Of a DNA stretch of 64,000 nucleotides, positions 1 through 17,853 are shown in pieces (position 1 is the first letter of the stretch; each line of letters begins with the position of its first letter). Origin of the DNA: Nitrososphaerota archaeon (GTDB taxonomy: Archaea; Thermoproteota; Nitrososphaeria_A; Caldarchaeales; Caldarchaeaceae). Location: positions 96,001 through 160,000 of the forward strand of contig JBEPYN010000002.1 of the NCBI GenBank assembly GCA_041641305.1, in the 5' to 3' direction. A program made the position numbers and the translations under genes. The notes beneath the pieces are model-generated. The model saw only the letters and a list, made by a program, of their open reading frames with translations, did not search any database and was not told where the DNA came from.

Positions 1-496
1 TACGGCCCAGCTTTTCACGGCCTAGCAAGACGCGCGCGAGGACCCTCGACACGTTTGTGTCCACCGCTATAAGCCTCTTGCTGTAAACGTGCACCAGCAC
101 TGCTGTCGATATGTAGTCGCCCACTCCGGGCAGATGGGCTAGCGTGCTTTCGCCCACTTCCCCCCTGCACAGCGCGCTGGCTATGCGCAGCAGCTCCGCA
201 GCCCTAAACCTGTAGAAGCCTAGAGGTTTTAGGACAGCCTCCAGCTCCTCTGGACCCGCTTTCTCAAGCAAGCACGGGTTAGGCCACCTTCTCATTATTT
301 CGGTGTATGCGCCCGCCGCCTGCTCCGCCCTCGTCTGCTGGAGGAGCTTCTCTGCCACTATTATCTCATACAGCCCTGAAGCCTCGCGCCAAGGGAAGCT
401 TCGGCCGTTCTTCTGATACCACGTCATCACTGCGTTCGATAGTCTGATGAACCTGCGGCGAAGCTCTGTTACGGCTGCCTTTTTCAACTTGTTCAT
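1..496 (-). CDS. HhH-GPD DNA glycosylase, MutY/MIG (T:G mismatch) family; 3' end runs off the window
   Basis: Manual translation from ATG at 496: MNKLKK...WYQKNGRSFPWR..YEIIVAEKLLQQT...LKPLGFY..RA...LPGVGDYISTAV...AVDTNVSRV. Shows the HhH motif and catalytic Asp (VDTN). Starts 4 nt after the MTase stop. Absent from the ORF track because it has no stop in the window. Confidence 0.9.
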   Translation of the reverse strand, partial: MNKLKKAAVTELRRRFIRLSNAVMTWYQKNGRSFPWREASGLYEIIVAEKLLQQTRAEQAAGAYTEIMRRWPNPCLLEKAGPEELEAVLKPLGFYRFRAAELLRIASALCRGEVGESTLAHLPGVGDYISTAVLVHVYSKRLIAVDTNVSRVLARVLLGREKLGR

Positions 497-2801: not shown

Positions 2802-2850
2802 CTCGCACTTTCGCGCCACTCTCTCAACTTATCAGAGACCCTGTGCTGAC

Positions 2851-3075
2851 ATGGTTATGGCTACGTATAGGGAGAGGCTTGAGCAGGAGCTTGAAGGCTG
2901 GAAAAAGTTTAGGGAAGCATTACTAGCCGATGAGAGGGCCGCCTTCGACGACATGGTTAGTTGCTCGCTTAAGTATGCTGGTGGCTCAGAGGCTTACAGG
3001 GAGAGGAGAACCTTCGACCTGCTAGTCATGTCGTCACGGATATCGCATGAGGAGGGGATTGAGGAAGTTGGATGA
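2851..3075 (+). CDS. Small helical protein resembling the archaeal PolB2-associated small protein; possibly frameshifted near the 3' end
   Basis: YRERLEQELEGWKKFREALLADERAAFDDMV...FDLLVMS; second degenerate copy at 10160-10357. Confidence 0.55.
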   Translation: MVMATYRERLEQELEGWKKFREALLADERAAFDDMVSCSLKYAGGSEAYRERRTFDLLVMSSRISHEEGIEEVG

Positions 3076-3168
3076 AGGGTTGAGAACGAGGATGCGGCTC
3101 GACAGCCGGATTGACGAAAGTTTGTTGAGCAGGAACTAAAGAACGAGTTAATGAGCAGGACAGATGAA

Positions 3169-4086
3169 CTATGTTATTGCTGCGGATAGCGTTTCTTTTA
3201 GTTCTTCTAGGTTCTGGTATTTTTTGTTGGGTATGTGTTTTAGTGCTTCCGCTACTCGCATCCTCTTTGTTGGTTTGTGGTCGAATAGTTTCCATCCCTG
3301 CTTAGCTATTATTTCGTCCTTGGTTGCTGGGAATGTGGTGTCCTCTGCTAGGACTTCCACGAGAGACTCCAGACCAATCTTCCCAGTCACAGGCGGCATA
3401 GTCCCAGTCATCCTGTATGCCTTGAGCCTGGCGGCGTCCACATACATCTTGAGCCCGTGGAACGACAGCATAACCCTCTTGGAGGGGGCTTTCTCAGCCT
3501 TTGAATTTATTTCTATAAGCTCTTGGTCGTCGAACTGGTATATGTTATTTCTTCCCCTGCCGAAGAGCCTTGTGTAGGTGAGTTCGGGGTCATAGTACCT
3601 AGGCTCCACCCTCGACAGGTCTGCTACATGTATTATCCCCATGTCCCGCATCTCCCTGTAGCAGGAATCATCGACAAGGCCCCTAACCTCAACACCAACC
3701 CTAACACCCCTCGAATCGACTGAGGAGAAGAACCTTGTGACCCTTTCCGCATCGAGCCTAACGCTTCGGGGAACTTCTAGGATGAGTAAAGGGGCGTTTA
3801 GTATACGGCATATCCCAACCATTTTCTCAAATGCTTTGTAGGCCTCCTCAACGGGCCTAAGACCATGCACATGGGTGACAACCCTGCTACACTTAACTGT
3901 GAATATGAAGTTCTCCGGAGCCCTCTTTCTCCAATTGTGGCAGAGGCTGGCGGGAACATCCCTGTAGAATGTCGTATTCACCTCCACAAAGTCGAAAGCC
4001 CTAGAGTACTCCCTAAGCCTATCCCACGCAGGTATGTTGAAGTACATCCAGCCACCGGTTCCTATCAGGACCTCGCCAGCCATCAA
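3169..4086 (-). CDS. DUF72 (TIM-barrel, endonuclease IV-like) protein with C-terminal DUF2795-like helical domain
   Basis: IGTGGWMY, FDFVEVNTTFY, FTVKCSRVVTH, YTRLFG; C-terminal FPATKDEII...ALKHIPNKKYQNLEEL. Confidence 0.85.
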   Translation of the reverse strand: MMAGEVLIGTGGWMYFNIPAWDRLREYSRAFDFVEVNTTFYRDVPASLCHNWRKRAPENFIFTVKCSRVVTHVHGLRPVEEAYKAFEKMVGICRILNAPLLILEVPRSVRLDAERVTRFFSSVDSRGVRVGVEVRGLVDDSCYREMRDMGIIHVADLSRVEPRYYDPELTYTRLFGRGRNNIYQFDDQELIEINSKAEKAPSKRVMLSFHGLKMYVDAARLKAYRMTGTMPPVTGKIGLESLVEVLAEDTTFPATKDEIIAKQGWKLFDHKPTKRMRVAEALKHIPNKKYQNLEELKETLSAAIT

Positions 4087-4127
4087 AGAGGATTCTTAAA
4101 TCCCCGCTCATAACCATTGACCATGGT

Positions 4128-5294
4128 TTGTCAACCATACTACTTGGTACTTCTGGGTGGAGCTATGATGAGTGGGTTGGACCTATATACCGTAGCAGGG
4201 ATGAGCCAAGGCTTAGAAGGTACAGCATGTTCTTCGAGACAGCAGAGATAGACTCCACCTTCTACTCATACCCAAGAAAAGAGGTTATCACGTCTATGAT
4301 TAGGAATGTTTCCAGCGGTTTCATCTTCACGGCCAAGGCCCCACAGGAGGTTACACACAAGAGGGCCTTGGATGTCAAGGCCGAGGCACATGAGGCGATG
4401 GACAGGTTCCTAGACCTTATGAAGCCCATGAGAGACTCGGGGATGCTTGGATGCATCCTCCTACAGCTACCTCCAAGCATGCGTCTCAACTTGGACAGGC
4501 TGGAAAGCTTCCTCCAAGAGATAGACATGGAATTCAGGTATGCCGTCGAGTTCAGACATCCAAGCTGGATAAGGGATGAAGTTTTCCGAACCTTGAGCAA
4601 GTATGATGTAGCCTATACTGTGGTCGATGAGTCGCTTCTACCCCCTGTTGTTGAGGTTACGGCTGATTTCGCATACGTCAGGTGGCATGGGAGAGGCTCA
4701 GACCCATGGTACAACTACCTATACAGCGACAGCGAGCTCACGCCATGGATACCCAGAATAAGGAAACTGTCGGAAAAAGCCAAGACGGTATACGGTTATT
4801 TCAACAACCACTTCCACGGATACGCGGTATACAACTGCATCAGAGTGATGGAGATGCTGGGAATAGCCGAAGAAAAACACACAAAACTCAAAACACAGAT
4901 AGAAAACTACTTCACACTAGCAGGAATATCCCCTGAAATGAACAGGGAACCGGACGAGGTTGAACACCTCCTAACAACCCTCTCAGACCAAAAAAGAATA
5001 ACAAGAGCACATCAAATAAACGACCAAGACGTGAAGATAACTAGGTTAGATGATGATGTGGTAGAGGCCATTGTCAAGGAATACCCCGTACAAATAGACA
5101 TACAGGGAAAAACTATTAGACACAACTGCCCAGACTGGCACAAAACATCAGAAGAAAGAAAACTATGCAAACACATAAACAAACTCCTCCTCACGATACC
5201 AAAAGAAAAAACAAAAACAATACTACAAAACATCACACAAACACCACACAAATGGAACCTAGAAAATCCACAACAGAACCAAACGGAACGGTAA
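4128..5294 (+). CDS. DUF72 protein with C-terminal SWIM-like zinc finger
   Basis: GTSGWSY, EIDSTFY, LLQLPPS, AVEFRHPSW, YVRWHGR, YFNNH; C-terminal HNCPDW...LCKH. Confidence 0.9.
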   Translation: MSTILLGTSGWSYDEWVGPIYRSRDEPRLRRYSMFFETAEIDSTFYSYPRKEVITSMIRNVSSGFIFTAKAPQEVTHKRALDVKAEAHEAMDRFLDLMKPMRDSGMLGCILLQLPPSMRLNLDRLESFLQEIDMEFRYAVEFRHPSWIRDEVFRTLSKYDVAYTVVDESLLPPVVEVTADFAYVRWHGRGSDPWYNYLYSDSELTPWIPRIRKLSEKAKTVYGYFNNHFHGYAVYNCIRVMEMLGIAEEKHTKLKTQIENYFTLAGISPEMNREPDEVEHLLTTLSDQKRITRAHQINDQDVKITRLDDDVVEAIVKEYPVQIDIQGKTIRHNCPDWHKTSEERKLCKHINKLLLTIPKEKTKTILQNITQTPHKWNLENPQQNQTER

Positions 5295-5374
5295 AAAAGC
5301 TAAAGTTATCGGAATTAAGCTAAAAAGTAGCCCGACCAAAAAGGCTAAAGTCGGCCTTTAAAAATACAAAGGTA

Positions 5375-7098
5375 ATGTGGCGTCCTCTCCATCTGGGAGT
5401 GGTTGTGTTATTTATGCTGAGCTTTTTCCCTCCCACAACTGCTCAACAAATTGATGAAAGGGGGTTTTCTACGTTAGAGTCATTATTTTCAGTAGCTCGG
5501 ATTGGACATCGGTTACCCTGCTCGGTGAAGAAAAGCTTGTGAATGTTAGACACAGACTTATTGAGGGTGATGCCCCCGTCGACGTAGCTTGGGAGGGCAA
5601 GTGGTTTGGTGTGAGTAGATGTTGCTACCCGGAGAAGGTTATAAACGCTACGGTTGAATTCCAGCTCCTAATAACCAACCTAAACCCTGATGGTGTTATC
5701 AGGATGCAGATGCAGAAAGGAGACGTAGGCACTACCATAATCGCAATATATGACAGAGAGGGGAGGACGATTAAGCAGATAACTCATAGCGGGATTGTCC
5801 CAGGCTCTGGAGGGAGAAATCAGCTGAACTTTACAATAGACTCTGCGAGCGTAGCTTCCTCAGGCATGGTTACTATGCTTGGAAAGAGTGGCTACGATAA
5901 AATGGTTTGGGCCGCTTATTACCCATGGTATTTCAAAGAAAGTTGGAGGGATGCTAAGATGGCGGATAGGCCTCTGATAGGTGAGTATGCATCTGATGAT
6001 GAGAATGTGATCAGGTTGCATATACGCATGGCCAAGGCAGCTGGTATAGATGGTTTCGCGGTCTCTTGATGGGGTCCTAACACCTTCACCGACAAAAATC
6101 TGATAAAAATCCTCAAGATCGCGGCTGAGGAGGGCTTCCATGTTGCGGCGTATCTAGAGTCGCTGGGAGGTCGGGGAGAACCAAGACCATTAGCCGAGCT
6201 TGAGAGCATGTTGGAGTATCTGCTCACATTTTACGGCGGCTATTCAGCATACTACAAGCTCCATGGAAAGCCTCTGGTGTTTGTTTGGGCGGCATGGTCC
6301 CATGAACTGGAAGAATGGGGTACAATATTTGAAAACCTCAAAGAAAAAGGAATAAGAGCTATTTACATCGCAACCACTCTAGACACAAAGTATCTTTCGT
6401 CCTTTGATGGTTTACAAAATTATGGCGGCGACGAATTGGATAGGATTACGCAGGTGTATGGTAAAGTAGGGCCTATTGTTAAAACTTATCACATCTTATA
6501 CGGTGGTGTGGAGAAGATATGGGTACCGTCGGTCTGGCCAGGTTATGATGAGCGTCTCCTACCTGACCGTATGGGGCTTTTCTTTGATAGGGAAGAGGGA
6601 CAATATTATCTAGGGTTCTATTCTGCAGCTAGAGCTAGCTATCCAGACTGGATATGGATAACTAGCTTCAACGAGTGGTGGGAGAATACACACATAGAGC
6701 CGAGTCACAAGTATGGCTACAAGTATCTCTTCCTAACAGAATACATAGTAGCCAACTTTAAAAACAAACCCATCAAGCCCGATAAACTACTAGGTATAGT
6801 TATCGATTTAGAAAGCCCATTGAGGACTATAACTAAGTTAGCTGTTTCAACCATTACCGTTACCCAGCAACTGGAGACAACAAGATTCATACATAGTGTA
6901 GAAACTAGGACAGTGGAGGTTTTCAGAACCGTAACCACGGTCTCCACCCTTCTGACGGAAAAAAGAACAGTAGAGATAGCCGATATCATATTGGTGACCG
7001 CACCACTGCTGCTTGTCGCCACGCTGTCTACTGTCTACGCAATTAGAACTAGGAGAAAACATGCCTCTCTACACCGGAGAGAAACAAGGATCAAATAA
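5375..7098 (+). pseudogene. Membrane-anchored GH99/GH71-like glycoside hydrolase, disrupted by a frameshift (G5 run 5460-5464) and a nonsense codon (6067-6069)
   Basis: Signal peptide from ATG 5375; AYYPWY, PLIGEYASDD, AKAAGIDGFAVS*WGP (WW to *W), KPLVFVW, SVWPGYD, WITSFNEWWENTHIEP; Thr-rich stalk, TM helix and basic tail. ORFs 5539-6069 and 6208-7098 are in the same frame. Confidence 0.8.
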
Positions 7099-7432
7099 AC
7101 ACCAAGCAACCACCATACTCCTCCCCTAACTGGAAACGGAGGAATATATCACTCACAGTATTGGATTTTAGCTCTTAAGGGGAAAGATTTTATGATTCGA
7201 TAAATGAAGCAATGTAACAGTTGTTTTCCTCATTTTCCTGGGATGAGTGGAGATCCGACAAAATTTACACCCATAATAATAACAAAGAAAACGTCATAGA
7301 TACCTATGAAGATAGCCCTAATCAACAACCTGAGACTAAAGATCGTGGGGAGGGGGGAGTAATGCATTGTTGACGGCGCCAGGCACACAATAGCCAAAAA
7401 CTTATTAAGCCTCTTATAAAAGTATCAAAAAA

Positions 7433-8683
7433 ATGCAATCCTACAGTCAGTACATTGAGATGGGTGGTGCTCTTAGACTTGAGGGGGTCTTCCTTGAAAG
7501 TATCGTAGCGGCTTACTTATTAACAAAGGGTGAGGAGATAGTCCCAAGTCCCGAGACTAGGGGGATCCAACATGATGTATTAGTGAAGCGAGTTGATGGA
7601 TTCATATTTTACGAGTGCACGGGGCTTTCGGAAATTTCCTCCCAGAAAATCCATAGATTCAGCGACGACGTGAGAGAGTTAAATAAAAGGCTACAAGAGA
7701 GCGAAAAGAAGGGTCTAACAGCAGCGTATTTTGTTGCTGCAGTCCATGAAAATGCTTGGACATCAGAGGCTAAAGATGCATTTCAACGCGTTAAGACACG
7801 GTTACGTGAGAAGTTACGAATAGATGTAAGACTCTTACAGGGTGACGAACTATTACTGGAATTATTGCGTTCAGGAGTTTTGGGGATTAGGTTAGTTAAA
7901 GATAAAGTGTATTGGGCAGGACCAGAAGACCTTGCAATAAGGTATAATGCTCAGAGCAACAGTTTTCAATATGGTCGTTGGAACGAGCACTATGTATCGA
8001 AATTCAACATGCTACACTTCTCATTGCTTCCATCATTTTACTGGGAAAGCTACTATCGCCCGCTTTTCGAAGAAGCTGTAAAGGATAAATTGGAATTACC
8101 ATTATCGGTTTTCACTTACCCTGACCAAGAAGGACTTACATGGCGTAATATAAGAGACGCGGTTGAATGCTTTGCGTCTTATCTTAGCAGACTAAATCGA
8201 ACGTATGTTTGGGAAAAAGGAGAAGACTTCATTCTTGAACTTCATACGAGTAAGAGAGGTTACGATTCTTATATCCTGTACTTGTTTACATCAGGTGAGC
8301 AGAAGAGTCAATCTCCATACGAAGCTAGATATGTTTCCTTAACTCTATTATCATCCCTTAAAGGAAAGGCAGAAGACCTAATAAGCAAGTTTAAAGAGGA
8401 TGGTAAAATACCGAAAGAGGAAAAGGTCAGCGTTATAGTGGTTTCTACCACACAATACTGGTCTCCTCGGGCATGGGGTGCTGTGAAAAAGATCCCTGAA
8501 ACATATAGTGAGGAGGTGGGTTATTCTGAGCGGATTCCCGGAAATGAGTTATTAACACGGCTTTTTAACGCAGGCATTTTGGGGTTTAGGTTTAAGGAGA
8601 AGAACCAAGTGGCAATCGTAGGAGATGGAATCCCTGCTGTTAGAAAGACTGTGGAAGGATTGAAGGTTGCATCTAACGGATAA
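7433..8683 (+). CDS. Putative Mrr-like PD-(D/E)xK nuclease-fold protein with internal duplication
   Basis: LESIVAAYLLTKG...GIQHDVLV...FIFYECT at the N-terminus; repeated segments LQGDELLLELLRSGVLGIRL and IPGNELLTRLFNAGILGFRF. Confidence 0.6.
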   Translation: MQSYSQYIEMGGALRLEGVFLESIVAAYLLTKGEEIVPSPETRGIQHDVLVKRVDGFIFYECTGLSEISSQKIHRFSDDVRELNKRLQESEKKGLTAAYFVAAVHENAWTSEAKDAFQRVKTRLREKLRIDVRLLQGDELLLELLRSGVLGIRLVKDKVYWAGPEDLAIRYNAQSNSFQYGRWNEHYVSKFNMLHFSLLPSFYWESYYRPLFEEAVKDKLELPLSVFTYPDQEGLTWRNIRDAVECFASYLSRLNRTYVWEKGEDFILELHTSKRGYDSYILYLFTSGEQKSQSPYEARYVSLTLLSSLKGKAEDLISKFKEDGKIPKEEKVSVIVVSTTQYWSPRAWGAVKKIPETYSEEVGYSERIPGNELLTRLFNAGILGFRFKEKNQVAIVGDGIPAVRKTVEGLKVASNG

Positions 8684-8748
8684 TCCTGACTGCGACAATT
8701 ATAGGCGGTAACACATATATGCTTGTGGCGGATATTAAACGTCATAGT

Positions 8749-9546
8749 ATGACCATAGTAATAGGTTTGAGATGGCAGTATAGGGACTCTGACGCGATAT
8801 TAATCACCTCCGACTCCAAGGTCACTACTTCTCTTGGCATAACTTATGAGATGAGGAAGGTTTACCCGATTTTGTTTAATGATGAAAGGCCTGTGGCTGT
8901 TGTTGGGGTTGCTGGCGATGCTCCTTTGGCTAAATACGGAGTGGAAGTAGTTGAGGATGTCTTACTAGGCTATGCTGAGGAGGGACTACCGCTGGAATAT
9001 GGCAAGTTCAGGTTAGCAGTCAGGGAGGTTGAGCGCCGGCTTATTCGTCACTTCAGCGAGCTCAGAACTCACGGTATTGACCCAAGCTTCCAGATGCTGC
9101 TAGGCGCCGTGGACCTGAAAGGGAAAGGTTCTCTCTATCTGTTCGACAGCAGGGGACTCTCCGAACCCGTACACGATAACCCGGGCTACGGTATCATAGG
9201 TTCGGGGATGATTACTGGAGGGATTCTGCTGCTTAGGATGATAGGTTTTGAACCTGGGCTAGAGCTAGGACTGCTCTCCGCATTCATAATAGACTCGGTT
9301 AGCGAGGTTGATTCATCGGTTGGCCGGTTCATAGGAGACAGCTACCTAATGAGGTTGGAGACTGAGAACAACGAGAGAAAAATAGTGCTGGGGCCGTTAA
9401 AGGAAGAGGCGCTTATAAAATACAAGGAACAAATACGTGCGAGGAGAGACATAATAGGGAGGATATGGCGGTTATGCGACGAGCTAGGAGAAGAAAAAAT
9501 AACAGAGGTTATCAACAATGTTGAAAAACATAAACATTCATACTAG
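8749..9546 (+). CDS. Divergent proteasome beta-subunit-like Ntn hydrolase without propeptide
   Basis: M-TIVIG (Thr1), ITSDSKVT (Asp17 equivalent), RKVYPI (Lys33 equivalent), GVAGD, MLLGAVD, LYLFDSRG, IIGSG, EVDSSVG; start reassigned from 8719 to ATG 8749. Confidence 0.8.
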   Translation: MTIVIGLRWQYRDSDAILITSDSKVTTSLGITYEMRKVYPILFNDERPVAVVGVAGDAPLAKYGVEVVEDVLLGYAEEGLPLEYGKFRLAVREVERRLIRHFSELRTHGIDPSFQMLLGAVDLKGKGSLYLFDSRGLSEPVHDNPGYGIIGSGMITGGILLLRMIGFEPGLELGLLSAFIIDSVSEVDSSVGRFIGDSYLMRLETENNERKIVLGPLKEEALIKYKEQIRARRDIIGRIWRLCDELGEEKITEVINNVEKHKHSY

Positions 9547-9560
9547 GTGAAAAGAATAGC

Positions 9561-9932
9561 ATGCAGGAAAGCACTCCATGGATAACTAACTACATCGAAT
9601 ATCTGGTAAATAGATACTTTGGGCCGTGTGGCTTGGCAGATGATGCTTTAAGGGAGCTCCGAAATCTTCCAAAGGGCCTCTCTCGACAGCTTGGTAATGA
9701 CGAGAATTTCTGGCGAGGGTATTTTTCTAACCCGACGAGACTGAACTTGATTGAAGGGGCCGTTAGATATGTAGGCGAAAGTGCTCGCCGACGCTCAGAA
9801 GAGCATGGCAGAAATCCGTGCTATTACCTCAACCTCGCGTTAGATAAGGAGGAGATGACAACATGGTTGGCGGGCTATCTACAAGTCTTCCTGCCGTATG
9901 AATTCTCCGAGAATAGAAATTCGTCGGAATAG
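9561..9932 (+). CDS. Hypothetical helical protein, probably co-transcribed with the Ntn hydrolase
   Basis: 123-aa ORF 14 nt downstream of the previous stop, preceded by an AGGTGA Shine-Dalgarno. Confidence 0.65.
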   Translation: MQESTPWITNYIEYLVNRYFGPCGLADDALRELRNLPKGLSRQLGNDENFWRGYFSNPTRLNLIEGAVRYVGESARRRSEEHGRNPCYYLNLALDKEEMTTWLAGYLQVFLPYEFSENRNSSE

Positions 9933-10159
9933 ACGTCTAACGCGGATTAAACATAAACTACTTTATCCATTATCGTGACATTACCGGTTAAAGGACGCGT
10001 ATACCCCGAATCACAATAAAGCATATTGTCTTCATCACGCTAAATACAAAATCTTCTTACCCATGACTTGTATAATCTTGGAATGATAGAGCTGAGGTCC
10101 CTGGTCAAGTTGCATCCTCGCACAGTATTTACAGCTTGTGAGGGAGTTGAAAACATCTC

Positions 10160-10357
10160 ATGCGTTGGCTTTATACAGGAGAGAGGCTGGGGCAGGACTT
10201 TGAAGACTGGAAAAGATTCAGGGAGGCTTTACTGGCTGAGTTAAGGTATGCTTTCGATAGCATGGTCAACCACCCGCTGAGGTACGCTAGAAAGAGGCTC
10301 AGGACCCTAGAGGACGGCCGGAAGGTGAGGATAACTCTATACAGTGTTATAGAATGA
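10160..10357 (+). pseudogene. Degenerate second copy of the 2851-3075 small protein
   Basis: GERLGQDFEDWKRFREALLAELRYAFDSMV aligns with RERLEQELEGWKKFREALLADERAAFDDMV; similarity is lost after about 45 codons. Confidence 0.6.
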
Positions 10358-10402
10358 AGGGCTGTAGCCAGCCTGCTTATTTCGGTGATACCGTCTGCAC
10401 CT

Positions 10403-11452
10403 TTATGAGGTTTTTATTAGCTCTAGTTTGGCTAGGATATTGTTTATTTTTTGCATGAGATTGGATGCTTCTAATACGTCTTCGACAGTCAGGTATGTGA
10501 TGTTTCTTCTGAAATCCTCTGACAGATCCTCTATCTCCTTCTTAAACTTATCCAACCCATCTGTGTTAGATACTATGATTATCTTCTGCACTGATTGATC
10601 CTTCTTCGCCTTCATGAGGTTCAGTATGGCTGAATCTATAGAGCCTGACTTATGAACTTCGAAGACATATTTTATAACTCCTAGGTTGCCTATCTTAGCC
10701 CGCCAGACGGCATCCACCCTAGCTCCCGTTGACACTGTCCTCTCGCTTTCGACTTCGAAACCAAGACCTGCACCGAGCTCAACAAGCTTCTCCACTATCT
10801 CGTCATGATCAAAGTCATAAACTTCTGATACACGGACCTCACCCTGCTCAGCTCCAAGCTGTATATAGTATAGGAATACGTCAACATCTAGCAAGTCTTC
10901 TCCTAAGCCCTCAGCCTTTAACTCTCTTTCTATTTGTTTAGCGATATTTAAAAACCTCTCGTACTCCTCTCCAGATATCCTATACTTGTTAACAGGTATC
11001 TCGTTACCAAGCCCTAAAACTCTGAGAGCACGTCTGCTCATCTCGTTCCATATGGCATACTCCGTCGGCCGAGCAAAACACATTATCTCTGTTGTTTGGG
11101 CAGGTCCCAAGCCCTTAACCCTCTTAAAGAACCTGTCGAACCTATCTCTAAGGCTGTCAGAACCCCATAAAAGGTCCTTAAACATCTCCCTCAAATTTCC
11201 TACGTCATTGTTCTCTAGGACCCTGTCAACAACGTATTGTTTATTAATCCAAGAGGCATTTGCCCAAAGCTCCATTACAACACGCGAGAGAACAGATACA
11301 TCGAGTTCATTTAACTTGTCAGCCGAAAATATCTCGGCATAGCGTTTACTCCTCTCCTCCCTTTCATACAACCATCTCCTCCCTTCCCCATCGATAAACT
11401 TCCTATATCCGGACAACTTTTTCTTTACTTCCTGAACAATCTCCATTTTCAC
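10403..11452 (-). CDS. Putative restriction endonuclease: N-terminal HhH-like domain plus C-terminal PD-(D/E)xK domain
   Basis: VKGLGPAQTTEIMCFARPTEYAIWN (HhH-like); HDEIVEKLVELG..LGF...RVDAVW...VFEVHKSG (catalytic D...E-x-H). Confidence 0.7.
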   Translation of the reverse strand: MKMEIVQEVKKKLSGYRKFIDGEGRRWLYEREERSKRYAEIFSADKLNELDVSVLSRVVMELWANASWINKQYVVDRVLENNDVGNLREMFKDLLWGSDSLRDRFDRFFKRVKGLGPAQTTEIMCFARPTEYAIWNEMSRRALRVLGLGNEIPVNKYRISGEEYERFLNIAKQIERELKAEGLGEDLLDVDVFLYYIQLGAEQGEVRVSEVYDFDHDEIVEKLVELGAGLGFEVESERTVSTGARVDAVWRAKIGNLGVIKYVFEVHKSGSIDSAILNLMKAKKDQSVQKIIIVSNTDGLDKFKKEIEDLSEDFRRNITYLTVEDVLEASNLMQKINNILAKLELIKTS

Positions 11453-11641
11453 TTCTCTCTGTAGCTAGACACTATATAAGTCGCTCCATTGACTTAGCAC
11501 TTCAGCTATCTCGTCCTTTTCCCATTGTAGGTCTAAAAGGGATTCGGAAATAACATCAAAAGCCATACAATGTGGAGCCCATGGTACGATGGGGTCAGCA
11601 GTCGAGGATCCGCAACATATAAAGCCTACTATAAATTGGTA

Positions 11642-11658
11642 GATAGTGTCCGGATAAG
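11642..11658 (+). repeat. IS6 terminal inverted repeat GATAGTGTCCGGATAAG
   Basis: Matches the reverse complement of 12180-12196 at 16/17 positions. Confidence 0.85.
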
Positions 11659-11687
11659 CATCTTTACCCACCTCCGTTCCTGATGGT

Positions 11688-11918
11688 TTAGTAGTACAGC
11701 GTGAAGAGGTTCAGGAACAAGTTCAGGTTCTTTATTCTCTGCTCGTAATCCCTTGCGCTCAATTTGTTGTGGAACACCATCGTCCTCTCCTTGAGGTACC
11801 TGAAGAACCTCTCTCCCCTATTCCTAATTCCGAACCTCTGGTGCTCGTACTCTAGCCCAAGCCTCTGCAACGCCCACGGATACCAAGGGCCCCTATCGAC
11901 TAAGGCTTGTTCAGACAC
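11688..11918 (-). pseudogene. IS6-family DDE transposase C-terminal fragment
   Basis: VDRGPWY..AL..LGL...RNR.ERFF..LKER. Confidence 0.85.
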
Positions 11919-12179
11919 ATCTTGAGGGCCTTCTTGAGGAAGTTTAGGGCGTTCAGGCAGCTCCTGCCTTACGAAGCCTCCGTGTACTGTGATTTGTTTA
12001 TTGGCTCTAGAGCTATGCTGAGCACCTTGGAGACCTTCCTGCAGCTTCCGCGGAACATGTAATCCAGGACAGCTAAGACCTTCACTCCACGGCTTTTTTG
12101 TTGCGCTTGAAGCAGCCCGAGATCAGGACCACTAGGTCCACACAGATTATCATCAAAGACCGGCCTTTAAATGTAGTCC

Positions 12180-12196
12180 CTTATCCGGACACTACC
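12180..12196 (-). repeat. IS6 terminal inverted repeat GGTAGTGTCCGGATAAG (minus strand)
   Basis: CTTATCCGGACACTACC on the + strand; GG terminus typical of IS6. Confidence 0.85.
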
Positions 12197-12284
12197 GGAG
12201 GATAGATATGATCCGCGGGTTTTCGAGGAGTTAAAGGAGTGAATATTTATTAATAGAACAGCAGTAAAGAGACGAGATAGGCAC

Positions 12285-12827
12285 ATGGTTGTTAAGGTGT
12301 ATCTTCCGACGCCGCTTCGCCAGTATGCCGATGGCCGGGACATGGTTGAGCTGGACGGCTCAACCGTTGGAGAGGTTCTAAACAAGCTAGTAAGCCGCTA
12401 TAACGCGCTTCAGAAGCATCTATTCAACGAAAACGGGGCAATAAGGAGCTTTGTAAACGTTTTCGTCAACAACGAGGACATCAGGTTTCTCGAAGGCGTC
12501 AACACCAAGATAAAGGACGGAGACGTCGTCTACATCATCCCCTCTATAGCTGGTGGACTGAGCATCGCGGCTCCGGCTGCCGTGGCGAGGAAACTGGGCA
12601 GAACGGTGAAGCAGCACGGCAGAATAACCGTTCCCGCGAAGCTTCTCAAAAAAGCCAAGAAAAACGAGGTAACAGTCATCATAGACGACGTCAAATACCT
12701 CTTCGAACCCGACAGATATAACCGCATCTACCTACCCCCTGCTCTCCGGGAAAAGATACTGCACATGTCATCCTTCGAGTTCACCTTGTCCGACGGCGAG
12801 CTCATCCTCAGGTTCAGAAGGTTTTAA
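12285..12827 (+). CDS. Ubiquitin-like (MoaD/ThiS/SAMP/CysO) domain with internal GG fused to a double AbrB/MraZ-like domain
   Basis: VKVYLPTPLR...TVGEVL...VNVFVNNEDIRFLEG..T.IKDGDVVYIIPSIAGG, then VKQHGRITVPAKLLK and PDRYNRIYLPPALRE. Confidence 0.85.
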   Translation: MVVKVYLPTPLRQYADGRDMVELDGSTVGEVLNKLVSRYNALQKHLFNENGAIRSFVNVFVNNEDIRFLEGVNTKIKDGDVVYIIPSIAGGLSIAAPAAVARKLGRTVKQHGRITVPAKLLKKAKKNEVTVIIDDVKYLFEPDRYNRIYLPPALREKILHMSSFEFTLSDGELILRFRRF

Positions 12828-12851
12828 GAGCAGGTAGACATAGGACTTTCC

Positions 12852-13256
12852 ATGGTTAAGTTTGTCGTAACGGTTGAGACGGAGGATGATGTAGAGGTTT
12901 CTCTCGAGGCCTCTTCTAAGGAGGAAGCTTTGGCCAACCTTGACGAGCTTCTCGCGTTGACACGCGCAGTCGCGGAGAGGCTGAAAACCAAGCCGCAGCA
13001 CAAGGCCCCGAAAAGACGTGGAAAATCCGAGGCGGTTAAAGCACTAGAGATAATCGAACAGAAACTCATACCCTCCTCCTTCTTCAGCACCGCGAGAACA
13101 ACAGCTGAAGTGAGACAAAAAATCATCGAGCAATCTGGTCTACCGTTTCAGAGCCGCAAAGTTAGCCAAGCACTGGGTATACTCTATGACAAAGGAACCT
13201 TAACACGTGTCGGGCAAAAAGGCAACTACAGATGGATACTCCCGAAATCGCCGTGA
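12852..13256 (+). CDS. Putative winged-helix DNA-binding protein
   Basis: FFSTARTTAEVRQKI...SRKVSQALGILYDKGTLTRVGQKGNYRW; 24 nt after the Ubl-AbrB gene. Confidence 0.65.
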   Translation: MVKFVVTVETEDDVEVSLEASSKEEALANLDELLALTRAVAERLKTKPQHKAPKRRGKSEAVKALEIIEQKLIPSSFFSTARTTAEVRQKIIEQSGLPFQSRKVSQALGILYDKGTLTRVGQKGNYRWILPKSP

Positions 13257-13300
13257 AGTGGATGAACCCATAAATAAAGACCAAGTAGTAAACTTCCCGG

Positions 13301-14173
13301 ATGAACGTGGCCGAGACGGTTAGGGTCTATTTTTCGCTGACGAAGCCCAATGTCTGGTGGCTTCTGGCTTTCACGGGGGCGGCGGGAATTTTCGCCGCCT
13401 CCAACGGGTTACCCGACCCCTATCTCTTCACGGTCGCTATTCTTTCAATAACTTTTGGTGTTGCTGGGACGGAGGCTGCTTCAAACTATCTTGAGATGTC
13501 GCTTGACTCTGTGATGAGGAGGACATCGAAGCGTGTTCTTCCGCGGGGGTTGATTAACCCGCCTTGGAAAGCTCTAGTGTTTGGTCTCGTTTTGATGACG
13601 ATTTCTCTCATTTTCGCTATTTTCATCAACCCTGTGACATTTTTCTTCATGGCTTCGGGGATGTTTGACTACTTGGTTGTCTATGTCATGTGGAGTAAGC
13701 GGCGGACGCCGTTGAACATTATTCTCGGAAGCTATGCGGGCGGAGCTCCTCTGATGGCGGGATACACCGCTGTGAGCTATTGGCCGACGCTGGAAGCCTT
13801 CATCCTCGCCGCCTTGATAGTTCTCTGGATTCCGCCGCATATCTGGAGCCTTGCTCTCATATACAAGGAGGACTATGCGAGAGCTCATGTGCCCATGCTC
13901 CCCGTCGTAACCTCAGAGGCCACAGCAATCCGCTGCATCTCCTCAACAACAATAATCTCAGTCCTCTTCACATTCCTCCTCTATTTCCTCTATCCAGAGA
14001 AGTATGGACTCATATATCTTGTCGCAGCCGTGGTCAGCGGGTTGATGATTGTTCTGCCAGCAACCGCGCTGATAGTTAATCCAAACCGTAAAACAGCTTA
14101 CCTACTGTTCAAAACCACGAGCCCACAGCTGTTCATCATTATGCTCGCCGTGGTACTGGACACTTTTATCTAA
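13301..14173 (+). CDS. ctaB: Protoheme IX farnesyltransferase (heme o synthase)
   Basis: LTKP, N..LE...D..MRRTSKRVLPRG, Y...SKRRTPLNI, LWIPPHIWSLA..YKEDYARAHVPMLP. Confidence 0.93.
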   Translation: MNVAETVRVYFSLTKPNVWWLLAFTGAAGIFAASNGLPDPYLFTVAILSITFGVAGTEAASNYLEMSLDSVMRRTSKRVLPRGLINPPWKALVFGLVLMTISLIFAIFINPVTFFFMASGMFDYLVVYVMWSKRRTPLNIILGSYAGGAPLMAGYTAVSYWPTLEAFILAALIVLWIPPHIWSLALIYKEDYARAHVPMLPVVTSEATAIRCISSTTIISVLFTFLLYFLYPEKYGLIYLVAAVVSGLMIVLPATALIVNPNRKTAYLLFKTTSPQLFIIMLAVVLDTFI

Positions 14174-15495
14174 CCAGGTTTAATCCACTGGCCCTCGGCA
14201 GATCCGCTGGGCTCTCCGTCGACTGCCACTATTTTTCCGCGTAGTATTGTGTAGCGGTGTTTGGCGAGGATTTCTCTGCCGTCGAAGGGTGTGAAACGGT
14301 GTTTGCTGTGCAGTTTGTCTGCCTGTATCTTCGAGGGTGTCCGTGGGTCGAAGATGGCGAAGTCGGCGTCCGAGCCTATCAACAGCCCCCCTTTCCGCGG
14401 ATACAGTCCAAAAGTTTTCGCCGGGTTTGTTGAGAGAACTTCAGCCACTTTCTCGAGTGGGATATATCCACGTAGGGCCGTGTCAACCATCAGGGGCCCA
14501 AGCAGCTCTACGCCAAACATGCCTGCGGGGGCCTCGAAAACGTTTCTGCCTTTTTCCTCTAAGGTATGTGGAGCATGGTCAGAGCCGATGTTGGTTATCA
14601 CACCCAGCCGCAGGCCCTGTAGAAGCTTCTCCCTGTCTTCTGGGAAACGTATTGGCGGGTTTACCTTCATCAGGTTACCGAAGCGCTTGTAGTCGCCGCT
14701 GTCGAGCAATAGATACTGTGGGCATGTTTCGACAAACACGGATGGGGCCCTATTCAGGCGGAGATAGTCAACAGCCTCGCCGCTGCTGAGATGCACAATC
14801 AAGGCACGGCCCCCTGTCTTAGCTGCGTAGTAGTTGATTTTGATGACGGAGTCGACCTCACATATCGCAGGCCTCGCATATAGGTGCGACAGTGGAGAAA
14901 CAGGTTCTCGCCGTGCTTTTTGTTCATAGTGGTGGACGAGGTAACGGTTTTCGCAGTGGAAAGCTATTGTGAAGCCTTTTTCACGGGAGAGTGTGAGGGC
15001 CTCGATGATTGTTGGGTCGCTGGGCTGCTCGATGTCTCCTGTGGTGGGTCCGAGAAACGCCTTGAAGCCAACCGCCCCTGCTTCAAGCATCTCCTCCAAG
15101 TTGTTTAGGCTCTGGTCGGTCAACACACCGTATAGCCCATAATCCACCCACGACTTGCCGCGCACACGCTCCGCTTTCATTCTAAGTGTTGACGCGTCGG
15201 CTACGGGTGGAACCGTGTTGGGCATCTCGAGAACAGTCGTCACACCTCCCGCCGCTGCTGCGGCAGAGCCTGTCGAGAAATCCTCTTTCCACTCGTAGCC
15301 AGGCTCCCTGAAGTGGACATGCTCGTCAACAAAGCCTGGAAACACATACATCCCCGACGCGTCAACAACATCCACGCCACGTATGTCAAACCTCTCACCA
15401 ACCGCCGCAATCTCTCCATCCTCGACATAAATGCTGGCCCGGACAACGCCCTGTGGTGAAACTATGTATCCATCCTTGATTACGAGCTCTGACAC
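14170..15495 (-). CDS. Cyclic amidohydrolase (allantoinase/dihydroorotase family); allantoinase favoured by the adjacent xanthine dehydrogenase genes
   Basis: PGFVDEHVHFREPG, AAAAGGVTTVLEMPNT, HCEN, ETCPQYL, KVNPPIR, GSDHAPH. Confidence 0.85.
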   Translation of the reverse strand: MSELVIKDGYIVSPQGVVRASIYVEDGEIAAVGERFDIRGVDVVDASGMYVFPGFVDEHVHFREPGYEWKEDFSTGSAAAAAGGVTTVLEMPNTVPPVADASTLRMKAERVRGKSWVDYGLYGVLTDQSLNNLEEMLEAGAVGFKAFLGPTTGDIEQPSDPTIIEALTLSREKGFTIAFHCENRYLVHHYEQKARREPVSPLSHLYARPAICEVDSVIKINYYAAKTGGRALIVHLSSGEAVDYLRLNRAPSVFVETCPQYLLLDSGDYKRFGNLMKVNPPIRFPEDREKLLQGLRLGVITNIGSDHAPHTLEEKGRNVFEAPAGMFGVELLGPLMVDTALRGYIPLEKVAEVLSTNPAKTFGLYPRKGGLLIGSDADFAIFDPRTPSKIQADKLHSKHRFTPFDGREILAKHRYTILRGKIVAVDGEPSGSAEGQWIKPG

Positions 15496-15555
15496 ATGTT
15501 TTCACCGGCTGTGAAGCATTTTAACCTTAAAAAGGCGTCATAGTTCACGTGGGTT

Positions 15556-17847
15556 GTGAGTGTTGACGAAGAAGCTTACAGCGTTATCCAGGAGTGGCTT
15601 TCGCGTGACAGGTTCATAGTCGTGAAAAAAGACGTCGTCAGACACGAGTCTGTCGCAGGTGTCAGGGGGATGCTTCGCTATGTCGAGGACTATGTCGACG
15701 GCCGCTGTCTCCACGCACGCATCGTGAGAAGCATGGTTCCACATGGGTTGCTCAAGTCAATCAAGTTAAATGACTCGAGTGGACACTTGATTACGGCCCG
15801 TGATGTCCCGGGTGAGAATCAGGTTGGTTACACGGTGGCTGACCAGCCTGTTCTCGCCGAGAAGAAGGTAAGGTTCTACGGTGAGTCTGTCGCGCTCGTG
15901 GTTTCGGACAACGGCTACTCTGCCGAGGATTTGCTTGAGAAAGTTGAGGTAGAGATTGAGCCTCTGCCAGCTGTTTACGATGTTTTCGAGGCTATGGAGA
16001 ACAGGGTTTTGATACATGAGGAGAGGGGCTCCAACATAGCTGTGACGGCGCATGTCAGGAAAGGAGATGTCTCGGTGGGCGAACGCGAGTCTGATGAAGT
16101 TGTGGAGAAGACCTATGTCCTCTCGCCGCAGGACCACGCCTACATGGAGACAGAGGCTGCTCTGGCCATCCCCAGCCCCGACGGCGTAACCGTCATAAGC
16201 CAAGCACAGTACCCACATCTAGCCCAGAAAACCGTCGCAAGAGTTCTCGGCATCCCGTACAGCAAAGTCGCCATCATCCAGCCCGCTATAGGAGGTGCCT
16301 TCGGTGGAAAGGATGACATGGGCCCGATTGTCTCGGCACAGGCCGCCCTCGCATGCTGGAAACTCGGTAAACCAGTCTACCTACAATACAGCCGTGAAGA
16401 AAGTTTCACAAGCCACTGCAAACGCGACCCCGCGGTAATCAAATGCAGAACAGGCGCCTCCCGTGATGGCTTGCTCAAGTTCCTGGATGCAGAGGTTATT
16501 TTTGACAGCGGAGCCTATGCAAACAGGGGCCCCTACACGCTCTGGCGAGCATGTGTCCATGTCGCGGGGCCCTACCGGATACCGCATGTAAACGTTGTCG
16601 GCAAACTTGTATACACAAACAAGGTTTACCAGGGAAGCTTCAGAGGGTTCGGCAATCCGCAGGCAGAGTTCGCGGCTGAGCGGCAGATGGATGAGCTGGC
16701 CCGTCGCCTCGGCATAGACCCAGTAGAGTTCAGGCTCAAAAACCTCCTAAGGCCCGGAGACCTTTCCGCCACCTCGCAGCCCATGCCCGAGGACACAGGC
16801 ATCGCGCCGCTTGTCGAAAAAATGAGGAACACTCTACACATCCCCAAGAAGAAGAGAGAAAACGGCTACCGGTATGGATACGGTTTCGCAGTCGCGTGGC
16901 ACGGCATAAGCACAAGCCGCGGCGTACCCGACTGGGGGTCGGCGACACTAACCGTCCTGAGGGATGGGAGCGTGGTTGTCTCAAGCGGCGTAGTGGAGTT
17001 TGGACAAGGGACGCATACAGCGATTAAGCAGGTTGTAGCGGAGGTTTTGGGCATACCGTATGAGTGGGTGAAGCTCGAGGGTGGAACAAGCTACGCCCCA
17101 GACACGGGTGCGACGCACGGCTCCCGTGGACTGACCCTCGGCGGCTCAGCCGCTCTTGTGGCAGCGGGCCGTGTGAGAAAAAGGGTTGTGAAGGTGGCTG
17201 CGGAGATGCTGGAGGCCAACCCCGACGACATCGAGATAGCCGACGGCAAAGTGTTTGTGAAAGGTGTGGAAAACAAGATGCTTGACTGGCGCGACATCGT
17301 CGCCGCATGCTACGCACGGGGAGTAGACCTCACCTCGAGCGGCTACTTCTTCCTCAAGAAGGACAAGTTCGACGAGTCCCGTGGACAGGGCCACGCCTAC
17401 ACCATTTACTCTTTTTCCGCAGTCTTGGTGGAGGTGAGGGTGGACACTGAGACGGGCAAGGTCGAGGTCACGAACGTGTGGCCCGGTGCGGCATGCGGCA
17501 GAATAATCAACCCGGGCATAGCTTTGGGCCAGATACATGGGTCGGTTGTCCAGTCTCTCGGCTACTCGTTGACTGAGCGCATGGTGTTTGAGGAAGGGCG
17601 ACTCCTCACGGCGAGCTTGATGGATTACCTCATCCCCTCGGCTGTCGAGACACCGCGGATACATGAACCCATATACCATGAGGACATCTGCCCACACGGG
17701 CCCCTCGGGGCTAAGGGCTTGGCTGAGCTGGCCCTGATACCCGTCCCCGCAGCCGTGGCCAACGCCATCAAAGACGCCGTCGGAGTAGATGTCGACGAAA
17801 TCCCCGTAGTCCCCGAGAAACTGATCAAGCAGCTACACCAACGGTGA
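15556..17847 (+). CDS. Xanthine dehydrogenase family molybdopterin-binding subunit
   Basis: HAYMETEA, GGAFGGK, SFRGFGNPQ, VEFGQG, GATHGSR, GAKGLAE. Confidence 0.92.
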   Translation: MSVDEEAYSVIQEWLSRDRFIVVKKDVVRHESVAGVRGMLRYVEDYVDGRCLHARIVRSMVPHGLLKSIKLNDSSGHLITARDVPGENQVGYTVADQPVLAEKKVRFYGESVALVVSDNGYSAEDLLEKVEVEIEPLPAVYDVFEAMENRVLIHEERGSNIAVTAHVRKGDVSVGERESDEVVEKTYVLSPQDHAYMETEAALAIPSPDGVTVISQAQYPHLAQKTVARVLGIPYSKVAIIQPAIGGAFGGKDDMGPIVSAQAALACWKLGKPVYLQYSREESFTSHCKRDPAVIKCRTGASRDGLLKFLDAEVIFDSGAYANRGPYTLWRACVHVAGPYRIPHVNVVGKLVYTNKVYQGSFRGFGNPQAEFAAERQMDELARRLGIDPVEFRLKNLLRPGDLSATSQPMPEDTGIAPLVEKMRNTLHIPKKKRENGYRYGYGFAVAWHGISTSRGVPDWGSATLTVLRDGSVVVSSGVVEFGQGTHTAIKQVVAEVLGIPYEWVKLEGGTSYAPDTGATHGSRGLTLGGSAALVAAGRVRKRVVKVAAEMLEANPDDIEIADGKVFVKGVENKMLDWRDIVAACYARGVDLTSSGYFFLKKDKFDESRGQGHAYTIYSFSAVLVEVRVDTETGKVEVTNVWPGAACGRIINPGIALGQIHGSVVQSLGYSLTERMVFEEGRLLTASLMDYLIPSAVETPRIHEPIYHEDICPHGPLGAKGLAELALIPVPAAVANAIKDAVGVDVDEIPVVPEKLIKQLHQR

Positions 17848-17853
17848 GGCAAC

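Follow-up and report, generated by a model that had tools for sequence, protein, structure and literature searches.

A catalogue of 22 new proteasome homologues was published by Fuchs, Alva and Lupas (2021; PMC8665760), who reported no informative gene context and no AAA+/ATPase partner for these proteins and suggested ATP-independent roles. Their catalogue includes ACC, an archaea-only family (Euryarchaeota, Crenarchaeota and other archaea) of 17 sequences at nr90, represented by WP_161937350.1, which lacks a propeptide, carries a long C-terminal helix for which a coiled coil was predicted and was placed in group II, remote from the 20S subunits. In the same paper, Anbu is listed only in bacteria (distribution table), and Connectase is described as lacking helices H1 and H2 and having a two-helix insertion between S3 and S4. 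We analysed a stretch of 64,000 nucleotides from a Nitrososphaerota archaeon (assembly GCA_041641305.1, contig JBEPYN010000002.1, positions 96,001 to 160,000 of the forward strand), hereafter called the window, which encodes a proteasome homologue labelled PH here. PH was found to be a further member of an enzyme family that was catalogued in 2021 and has never been characterised experimentally, and not a new kind of enzyme. Our preferred reading, to which we assign a probability of about 0.6, is that PH is an active Thr1 peptidase of a catalogued accessory archaeal family (likely ACC), which is separate from the 20S proteasome, mobile, and paired with a nuclease-like partner in a conflict module.

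Start codon, active-site residues and predicted fold of PH

The features of the gene in the window were as follows.

8749 to 9546, plus strand: gene for PH, a proteasome-beta/Anbu-like N-terminal nucleophile (Ntn) hydrolase of 265 amino acids (aa), beginning MTIVIG.
8749 to 8754, plus strand: Met-Thr start of PH; removal of Met would expose the nucleophile Thr1.
9403 to 9543, plus strand: C-terminal helical extension of PH (residues 219-265), consisting of a helix, a conserved Gly247-Glu248 and another helix.

The open reading frame (ORF) ends at 9546 and can begin at 8749 or at a second in-frame ATG at 8719. The first-pass annotation of this DNA had favoured the former, and had noted that a real start at 8719, with no processing to expose Thr, would speak against its proposal. 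In an alignment of 41 PH homologues (A1), Met1 was near-invariant (37 of 41), as were Thr2 (40 of 41) and Leu3, and at least 13 related loci had a longest possible ORF that began exactly at Met-Thr. The start of PH is assigned to 8749, and not to 8719, because Met-Thr is near-invariant and these related loci cannot begin upstream; the ten extra codons available from 8719 were not conserved among relatives. PH accordingly has no propeptide, as had been proposed. Thr as the second residue permits the removal of Met, given the known specificity of methionine aminopeptidase. This enzyme would remove Met1 of PH and expose Thr1.

The relationship of PH to proteasome subunits was hardly visible in sequence searches. 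The Pfam profile PF00227 scored 14.1 bits against PH (E-value of 0.038), below the gathering cut-off of 22.4, and a few relatives of PH carried a precomputed PF00227 match. The phmmer search of PH against PDB was not significant (E-value of 1.8), in line with the earlier view that PH is distinct from canonical PsmB, and beta subunits appeared in the phmmer/hmmsearch comparisons with PDB only at non-significant E-values of 0.3-1.8. Scans of PH and its neighbours against NCBIfam, PADLOC and PHROGs returned no match. The link to beta subunits emerged only at the profile-profile level, where hhalign matched A1 to the beta subunits of this genome and its relatives with a probability of 93-96% and E-values of 2.6e-7 to 9e-9, and gave no significant match between A1 and alpha subunits.

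The hhalign alignments paired Thr2 of PH with Thr1 of the beta subunits, Asp22 with Asp17, Lys37 with Lys33, Gly53 with Gly47 and the GSG motif with its counterpart, and a global alignment placed Asp188 on Asp166. All the motifs listed in the first-pass annotation (TIVIG after Met, SDSK, RKV, AGD, GSG and DSSVG) were recovered in the ORF, where they form part of ITSDSK (Asp22), MRKV (Lys37), GVAGD (Gly53/Gly56/Asp57), IGSG (151-153) and EVDSSVG (Asp188). In A1, Asp22 and Asp188 were invariant (41 of 41), Lys37 was present in 40 sequences and Gly53 in 37. The Thr1/Asp/Lys triad that had been described as intact was thus both conserved and correctly aligned, but the accessory serines named with it did not hold up: the Ser129 equivalent (Ser of GSG) varied in A1 (Ser in 20, Lys in 10, Thr in 9 and Arg in 2 sequences), the second Ser of DSSVG was not conserved, and the position aligned with Ser169 was an invariant Val in the PH family. 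Of the support residues Ser129, Asp166 and Ser169, only the equivalent of Asp166 (Asp188) was kept. Other residues were invariant specifically in this family, namely Lys62, His142 (in EPVHDNPGY), Thr156-Gly157-Gly158, Arg202, Lys226, Arg232, Trp240 and Glu248. The near-invariance of the catalytic residues over approximately 40% sequence divergence argues for selection on catalysis. Thr1 would act as both nucleophile and base, like in other Ntn peptidases, with Asp22 and Lys37 taking the roles of Asp17 and Lys33 and with Gly53 providing the glycine of the oxyanion hole.

A single-sequence AlphaFold2 model of PH was unusable (predicted local distance difference test score of 48), and a model built on A1 reached a score of 87.6 with a predicted template modelling score of 0.85. 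Foldseek matched the latter to 20S subunits and Anbu with a probability of 1.00. In VIA comparisons (Z-scores on the DALI scale), the model aligned with the Mycobacterium tuberculosis beta subunit over 214 residues (Z of 22.8, root-mean-square deviation (rmsd) of 2.5 Å) and with the T. acidophilum beta subunit at a Z of 22.6 (model 2..231 onto chain 1..201), followed by Anbu (21.8 at best), the 20S alpha subunit (18.4), HslV (17.5) and BPH (14.1). Connectase was the most distant proteasome-like structure (Z of 12.2 and 11.0, 135-137 residues aligned), and weaker matches were also obtained with NAAA, acid ceramidase and penicillin acylases (Z of 8-12.7). The model adopted the proteasome-type alpha-beta-beta-alpha Ntn fold and contained helices H1-H4, of which H1 and H2 spanned residues 58-78 and 84-107, and its residue 2 superposed on residue 1 of mature beta subunits. 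Taken together, the Foldseek probability of 1.00, the VIA Z of 22.8 and the hhalign probability of 93-96% place the match of PH to the proteasome fold far beyond chance.

The C-terminal extension, which had been put at about 50 residues, was borne out by two helices in the model (residues 219-246 and 248-264) that amount to 46 helical residues. The extension overlaps the H5 helix found in beta subunits and in Anbu and is longer, reaching approximately 33 residues past the archaeal beta subunit and approximately 12-15 past Anbu. In a rough test, its hydrophobic periodicity peaked at 3.6, and not at 3.5, residues. The tail is certainly an amphipathic helix, and a coiled coil is only a candidate. 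PH would probably form a ring or helical oligomer, in which the C-terminal helices may provide contacts between subunits as in Anbu.

PH is not part of the 20S proteasome of the cell, which is encoded elsewhere in the genome. The host genome (1.66 Mb, 99% complete) contains five canonical PF00227 genes, which are all located on another contig, and Pfam scans of the PH neighbours detected neither an alpha subunit nor an ATPase, as the first-pass annotation had stated. Outside the window, the host genome (G000) also carries a second proteasome alpha/beta operon (G000:C1:662518-663658; loci L004/L005), whose 187-aa beta subunit starts with MTTIVG, has no propeptide and is followed directly by the gene for a divergent, alpha-like protein of 228 aa. 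This tandem beta/alpha-like pair was found in the host and five other genomes of the genus, in which up to five PF00227 genes occur per genome versus three in other genera of the order.

Family distribution, genomic island and mobility

A search of 5.8 billion proteins yielded 93 clusters of PH homologues (90% identity) of approximately 260-285 aa, and an exhaustive HMMER scan gave 86 representatives of the family at 50% identity. The family occurred in TACK archaea, namely Caldarchaeales, Bathyarchaeota, Korarchaeota, Verstraetearchaeota, Thermoprotei and Nitrosocaldus; the named matches comprised TACK archaea and one Aenigmatarchaeota metagenome-assembled genome (MAG), and no euryarchaeal member was seen. 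Two members (L009 and L011), approximately 46% identical to the window protein, were located on contigs of 5.8 and 6.7 kb from Methylomirabilota and Nitrospiraceae MAGs, and their bacterial label reflects either wrong binning or a transfer into bacteria. In Candidatus Methanodesulfokora washburnensis, one PH copy (L026, 5941-6790) was broken by two early stop codons and a frameshift, and a second, partial copy was present on another contig (L028, 19-339).

The first-pass annotation had regarded PH as a further, that is new, branch of the proteasome fold. This part of its proposal was not upheld, because a Thermoproteus tenax orthologue had already been named 'proteasome-type protease' (WP_014126178.1 / CCC80921.1 / UniProt G4RMX7) and the archaea-only ACC had been catalogued in 2021. 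PH probably belongs to ACC, to which it was likened through the published description (PMC8665760), and the number of PH family members in NCBI by 2021 was of the same order as the ACC count of 17. The literature search retrieved no later characterisation of ACC and no link of proteasome homologues to defence.

The gene lies within a variable island of the window, the features of which are given below.

3119 to 12851, no strand: variable island carrying the module, approximately 9.7 kb; the corresponding site of G018, the nearest genome, holds approximately 0.5 kb.
7433 to 8683, plus strand: 416-aa orphan partner of PH, containing an internal repeat and, at its N-terminus, an HD...YECT...K motif.
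9561 to 9932, plus strand: small ORF of 123 aa downstream of PH, with no family match.
11688 to 11918, minus strand: short ORF/repeated sequence near the right edge of the island, with no Pfam match.

The island boundaries were defined by comparison with G018, in which window positions 2804-3118 matched 728405-728719 and positions 12852-20000 matched 729250-736398 at 89% DNA identity. The guanine-cytosine (GC) content was 42-47% over roughly 5-12 kb of the window, in comparison to 53-58% in the flanks. No flanking direct repeats and no tRNA genes were present at the island ends examined. Window positions 11764-11902 matched many contigs and contig ends in G050, G081, G018 and G308, and the element at 11688-11918 is probably the remnant of an insertion sequence.

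Of the 400 genomes sampled from the phylum, 13 carried PH, with a full-length match in only approximately eight of them, as did one of the ten other genomes of the genus. That congener (G308, locus L007) carries the module approximately 180 kb from the matching site, and its PH protein is 53% identical to that of the window. A quick maximum-likelihood tree mixed Bathyarchaeota, Sulfolobales, Thaumarchaeota and Nitrosocaldus at short distances and contained several long branches. The movement of PH by horizontal transfer on variable islands, which had been suggested on first inspection, is supported because the family is patchily spread, the island is absent from G018, the GC content dips and the tree mixes phyla; the host would be a hot-spring archaeon and the island foreign to it.

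Other genes were observed on the same island. A GH99-like glycosidase seems to be split into two ORFs (5539-6069 and 6208-7098), the second of which covers positions 136-308 of the PF16317 profile, and the gene may be decayed. A 349-aa protein encoded at 10403-11452 on the minus strand showed a weak OGG-like match at its N-terminus (PF21790, E-value of 4.8e-4) and, by eye, a nuclease-like D...EVHK motif at its C-terminus.

Partner genes and the proposed role of PH

The gene context of PH was read from 22 genome loci, 12 metagenome loci and six loci cut from genomes. The first-pass annotation had described PH as stand-alone. This holds insofar as a search for longer, fused forms found none (weak evidence) and no alpha subunit or ATPase is encoded nearby; it does not hold for the gene neighbourhood, since PH recurs beside a specific partner gene. 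The 416-aa partner adjoins PH in eight loci (the window, L007, L008, L013, L015, L029, L031 and L034), in four arrangements:

Partner upstream of PH, same strand: the window and L015 (partial).
Partner downstream of PH, same strand: L008, L013, L029 and L034.
Partner divergent to PH: L031.
Partner convergent with PH: L007.

The partner family comprises 26 clusters, all hypothetical, and scans against Pfam, NCBIfam, PADLOC and PDB returned no match; by its motif only, the protein resembles a PD-(D/E)xK nuclease. Only two intact partner copies were present in the 400-genome sample, both of them beside PH, and three further pairs of PH and partner clusters share the same longest-contig figure. 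The 123-aa ORF recurred among the fetched PH/partner loci only in the congeneric L007 (36% identity to 8137-8493). In two congeners that lack PH, fragments of the partner gene with an internal TGA were observed (G081:C5:30022-30344 and G206:C23:13454-13776), which suggests that the module was lost in both. In L030 (550-1791 and 2189-2941), the neighbour of a partner homologue is an M48 zinc metallopeptidase that carries a zinc ribbon, in place of PH; this single case may represent a swap of the protease.

A second partner set was found in other PH clades. It consists of two orphan proteins, 'B' (360-410 aa) and 'A' (560-660 aa), the latter ending in a conserved D...EVE...K motif, and neither matched Pfam, PADLOC or PDB. 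The pair occurs in L010, L020, L022, L024, L069 (Nitrosocaldus) and L074, and weakly in T. tenax; the following coordinates apply:

L010, 6779-9785: 'A'/'B' pair.
L020, 396-3201: 'A'/'B' pair.
L022, 2922-5826: 'A'/'B' pair.
L069, 545-3612: 'A'/'B' pair.
L074, 3782-6801: 'A'/'B' pair.

The hhalign comparison of the 416-aa partner with 'A' and 'B' indicated no relation, and we do not claim homology of the 416-aa partner with 'A' (probability of 0.4%).

According to the preferred reading of PH as a mobile accessory peptidase, PH and the adjacent 416-aa nuclease-like protein would constitute a two-gene module in this clade, most plausibly engaged in conflict with viruses or mobile elements, in which the protease would activate or degrade its partner, or would itself be the effector. 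A more specific version, which we put forward only tentatively and rate well below even odds, is that PH is the protease shared by a set of undescribed modules for conflict or defence in archaea, whose nuclease-like partners are interchangeable (in this clade the 416-aa protein, in others the pair of 360-410 and 560-660 aa) and would be activated or destroyed by PH on infection. If true, PH would be the first of the 'orphan' proteasome homologues of 2021 to be given a biological role, and the first proteasome-type protease in prokaryotic immunity. The PH gene alone is an ordinary further member of a described enzyme family. The archaeal stand-alone homologues of the 2021 catalogue came without an informative context, and the PH loci supply one; an orphan partner that is kept beside PH through rearrangements on mobile low-GC islands is a testable lead for an orphan enzyme family.

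Several observations weigh against the preferred reading. Its weakest step is the defence role, which is suggested by the island position and the swapping of partners. The scan with PADLOC-DB v2 gave no match for PH and only noise for the partners (E-values of 0.016-0.037). The nuclease likeness of the 416-aa protein is one of motif only, with no match in Pfam or PDB, and when the two partner types were compared with hhalign, their D...E.(T/E)...K motifs were aligned at a probability of just 0.4%, which is not significant. The partner was encountered without PH in L030, L032 and L036; in many PH loci the recurrent neighbours are different or absent, and the partner is adjacent in part of the family only. 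The probable assignment to ACC is derived from the description of ACC members and not from comparison with their sequences. In addition, because Ser129 lacks conservation and Val occupies the position of Ser169, the active-site hydrogen-bond network is predicted to differ from that of the 20S proteasome.

Some of the same data would suit a self-sufficient housekeeping or stress peptidase that clears unfolded proteins, like Anbu or the uncapped 20S particle, with its neighbours as mere passengers of the island. The structure of PH, which resembles those of beta subunits and Anbu and shares their long H5 helix, and the differing neighbours between clades are compatible with such a role, and Fuchs et al. 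(PMC8665760) suggested ATP-independent functions for homologues in which they saw neither informative context nor an ATPase partner. We nevertheless consider it unlikely, as a housekeeping function fits poorly with the presence in 13 of 400 genomes and one of ten congeners and with the island position; the 416-aa partner, moreover, adjoins PH through four gene arrangements, and the second partner set recurs in six to seven other loci.

Many other Ntn hydrolases act on non-protein substrates, and the loss of conserved Ser129 and Ser169, the new invariant His142, Lys62 and Arg202, and the structural matches to NAAA, acid ceramidase and penicillin acylases (Z of 8-12.7) would be in line with an amidohydrolase acting on a small molecule, a lipid amide or a modified nucleotide. 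These matches are, however, far weaker than those to proteasome subunits (Z of 20-23), and only the proteasome family has the Thr1/Asp17/Lys33/Gly47 set, which makes this explanation improbable.

The first-pass annotation had left open whether PH is a protease or a transpeptidase. A Connectase-like, sequence-specific protein ligase or transpeptidase would share with PH a Thr1 placed directly after Met with no propeptide, a restricted archaeal distribution and possibly a dedicated protein partner. The structural comparison disfavours this alternative, which we judge very improbable: Connectase gave the weakest proteasome-like match (Z of 12.2 and 11.0 over 135-137 residues, versus 22.8 over 214 for the beta subunit), and the PH model retains H1 and H2, with no S3-S4 two-helix insertion among its listed helices. 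Least probable of all is a catalytically silent scaffold, or a start at 8719 that would never expose Thr, since for all that an in-frame ATG exists there in this genome, the ten codons that it would add lack conservation, no start upstream of Met-Thr is available in at least 13 relatives, and the catalytic residues are near-invariant across approximately 40% divergence.

Comparison of PH with described proteasome homologues

Among the characterised proteins, PsmB (PF00227; PDB 1pma, 6bdf and 3krd) is the best structural match of PH, with a Z of 22-23 and an rmsd of 2.1-2.5 Å over approximately 200 residues, and its Thr1, Asp17, Lys33, Gly47, GxG motif and Asp166 all align with PH. The two differ in that PH falls below the Pfam cut-off, does not conserve Ser129 and Ser169, and has approximately 33 extra residues at the C-terminus. 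The PsmB propeptide, which is self-cleaved on assembly with alpha rings, has no counterpart in PH; nor does PH have a cognate alpha subunit nearby, and it is accessory, whereas PsmB is universal.

Anbu (PDB 5nyw, 5nyj and 5lox) resembles PH in being stand-alone, in lacking a propeptide and in its long H5 helix, and gave the longest aligned range (model 2..250/253) at a Z of 20.2-21.8. Its sequence identity with PH is, however, only approximately 15%, and Anbu is bacterial, whereas nearly all named PH matches are archaeal. The Anbu operon includes ATP-grasp and transglutaminase-like genes; Pfam scans of the PH neighbours revealed neither of these domains.

Connectase (PDB 6zw0 and 8jtu) is archaeal and, like PH, has Thr1 directly after Met, and it demonstrates that enzymes of the proteasome fold can be specific protein-modifying enzymes. 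It differs from the PH model, which keeps H1 and H2, shows no two-helix insertion among its listed helices and matches Connectase at a Z of only 11-12.2.

The T. tenax protein WP_014126178.1 is matched by the A1 profile over positions 1-265 (E-value of 1.8e-80), starts with MTLVIG and contains the same motifs. It belongs to another clade and has no 416-aa partner; the proteins encoded downstream are of 100, 308 and 442 aa, the last of which weakly resembles the 'A' partner. ACC is archaea-only, and the named PH matches are nearly all archaeal; as described, ACC shares with PH the absence of a propeptide, the Thr1/Asp17/Lys33/Gly47 core, the long C-terminal helix and the lack of an ATPase partner, and both are small, sporadic and uncharacterised families with only remote sequence similarity to the 20S subunits. 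The differences between them are that a coiled coil was predicted for ACC, whereas the PH tail gave a periodicity of 3.6 in a rough test, and that no informative gene context was reported for ACC (PMC8665760), whereas PH has a recurrent partner.

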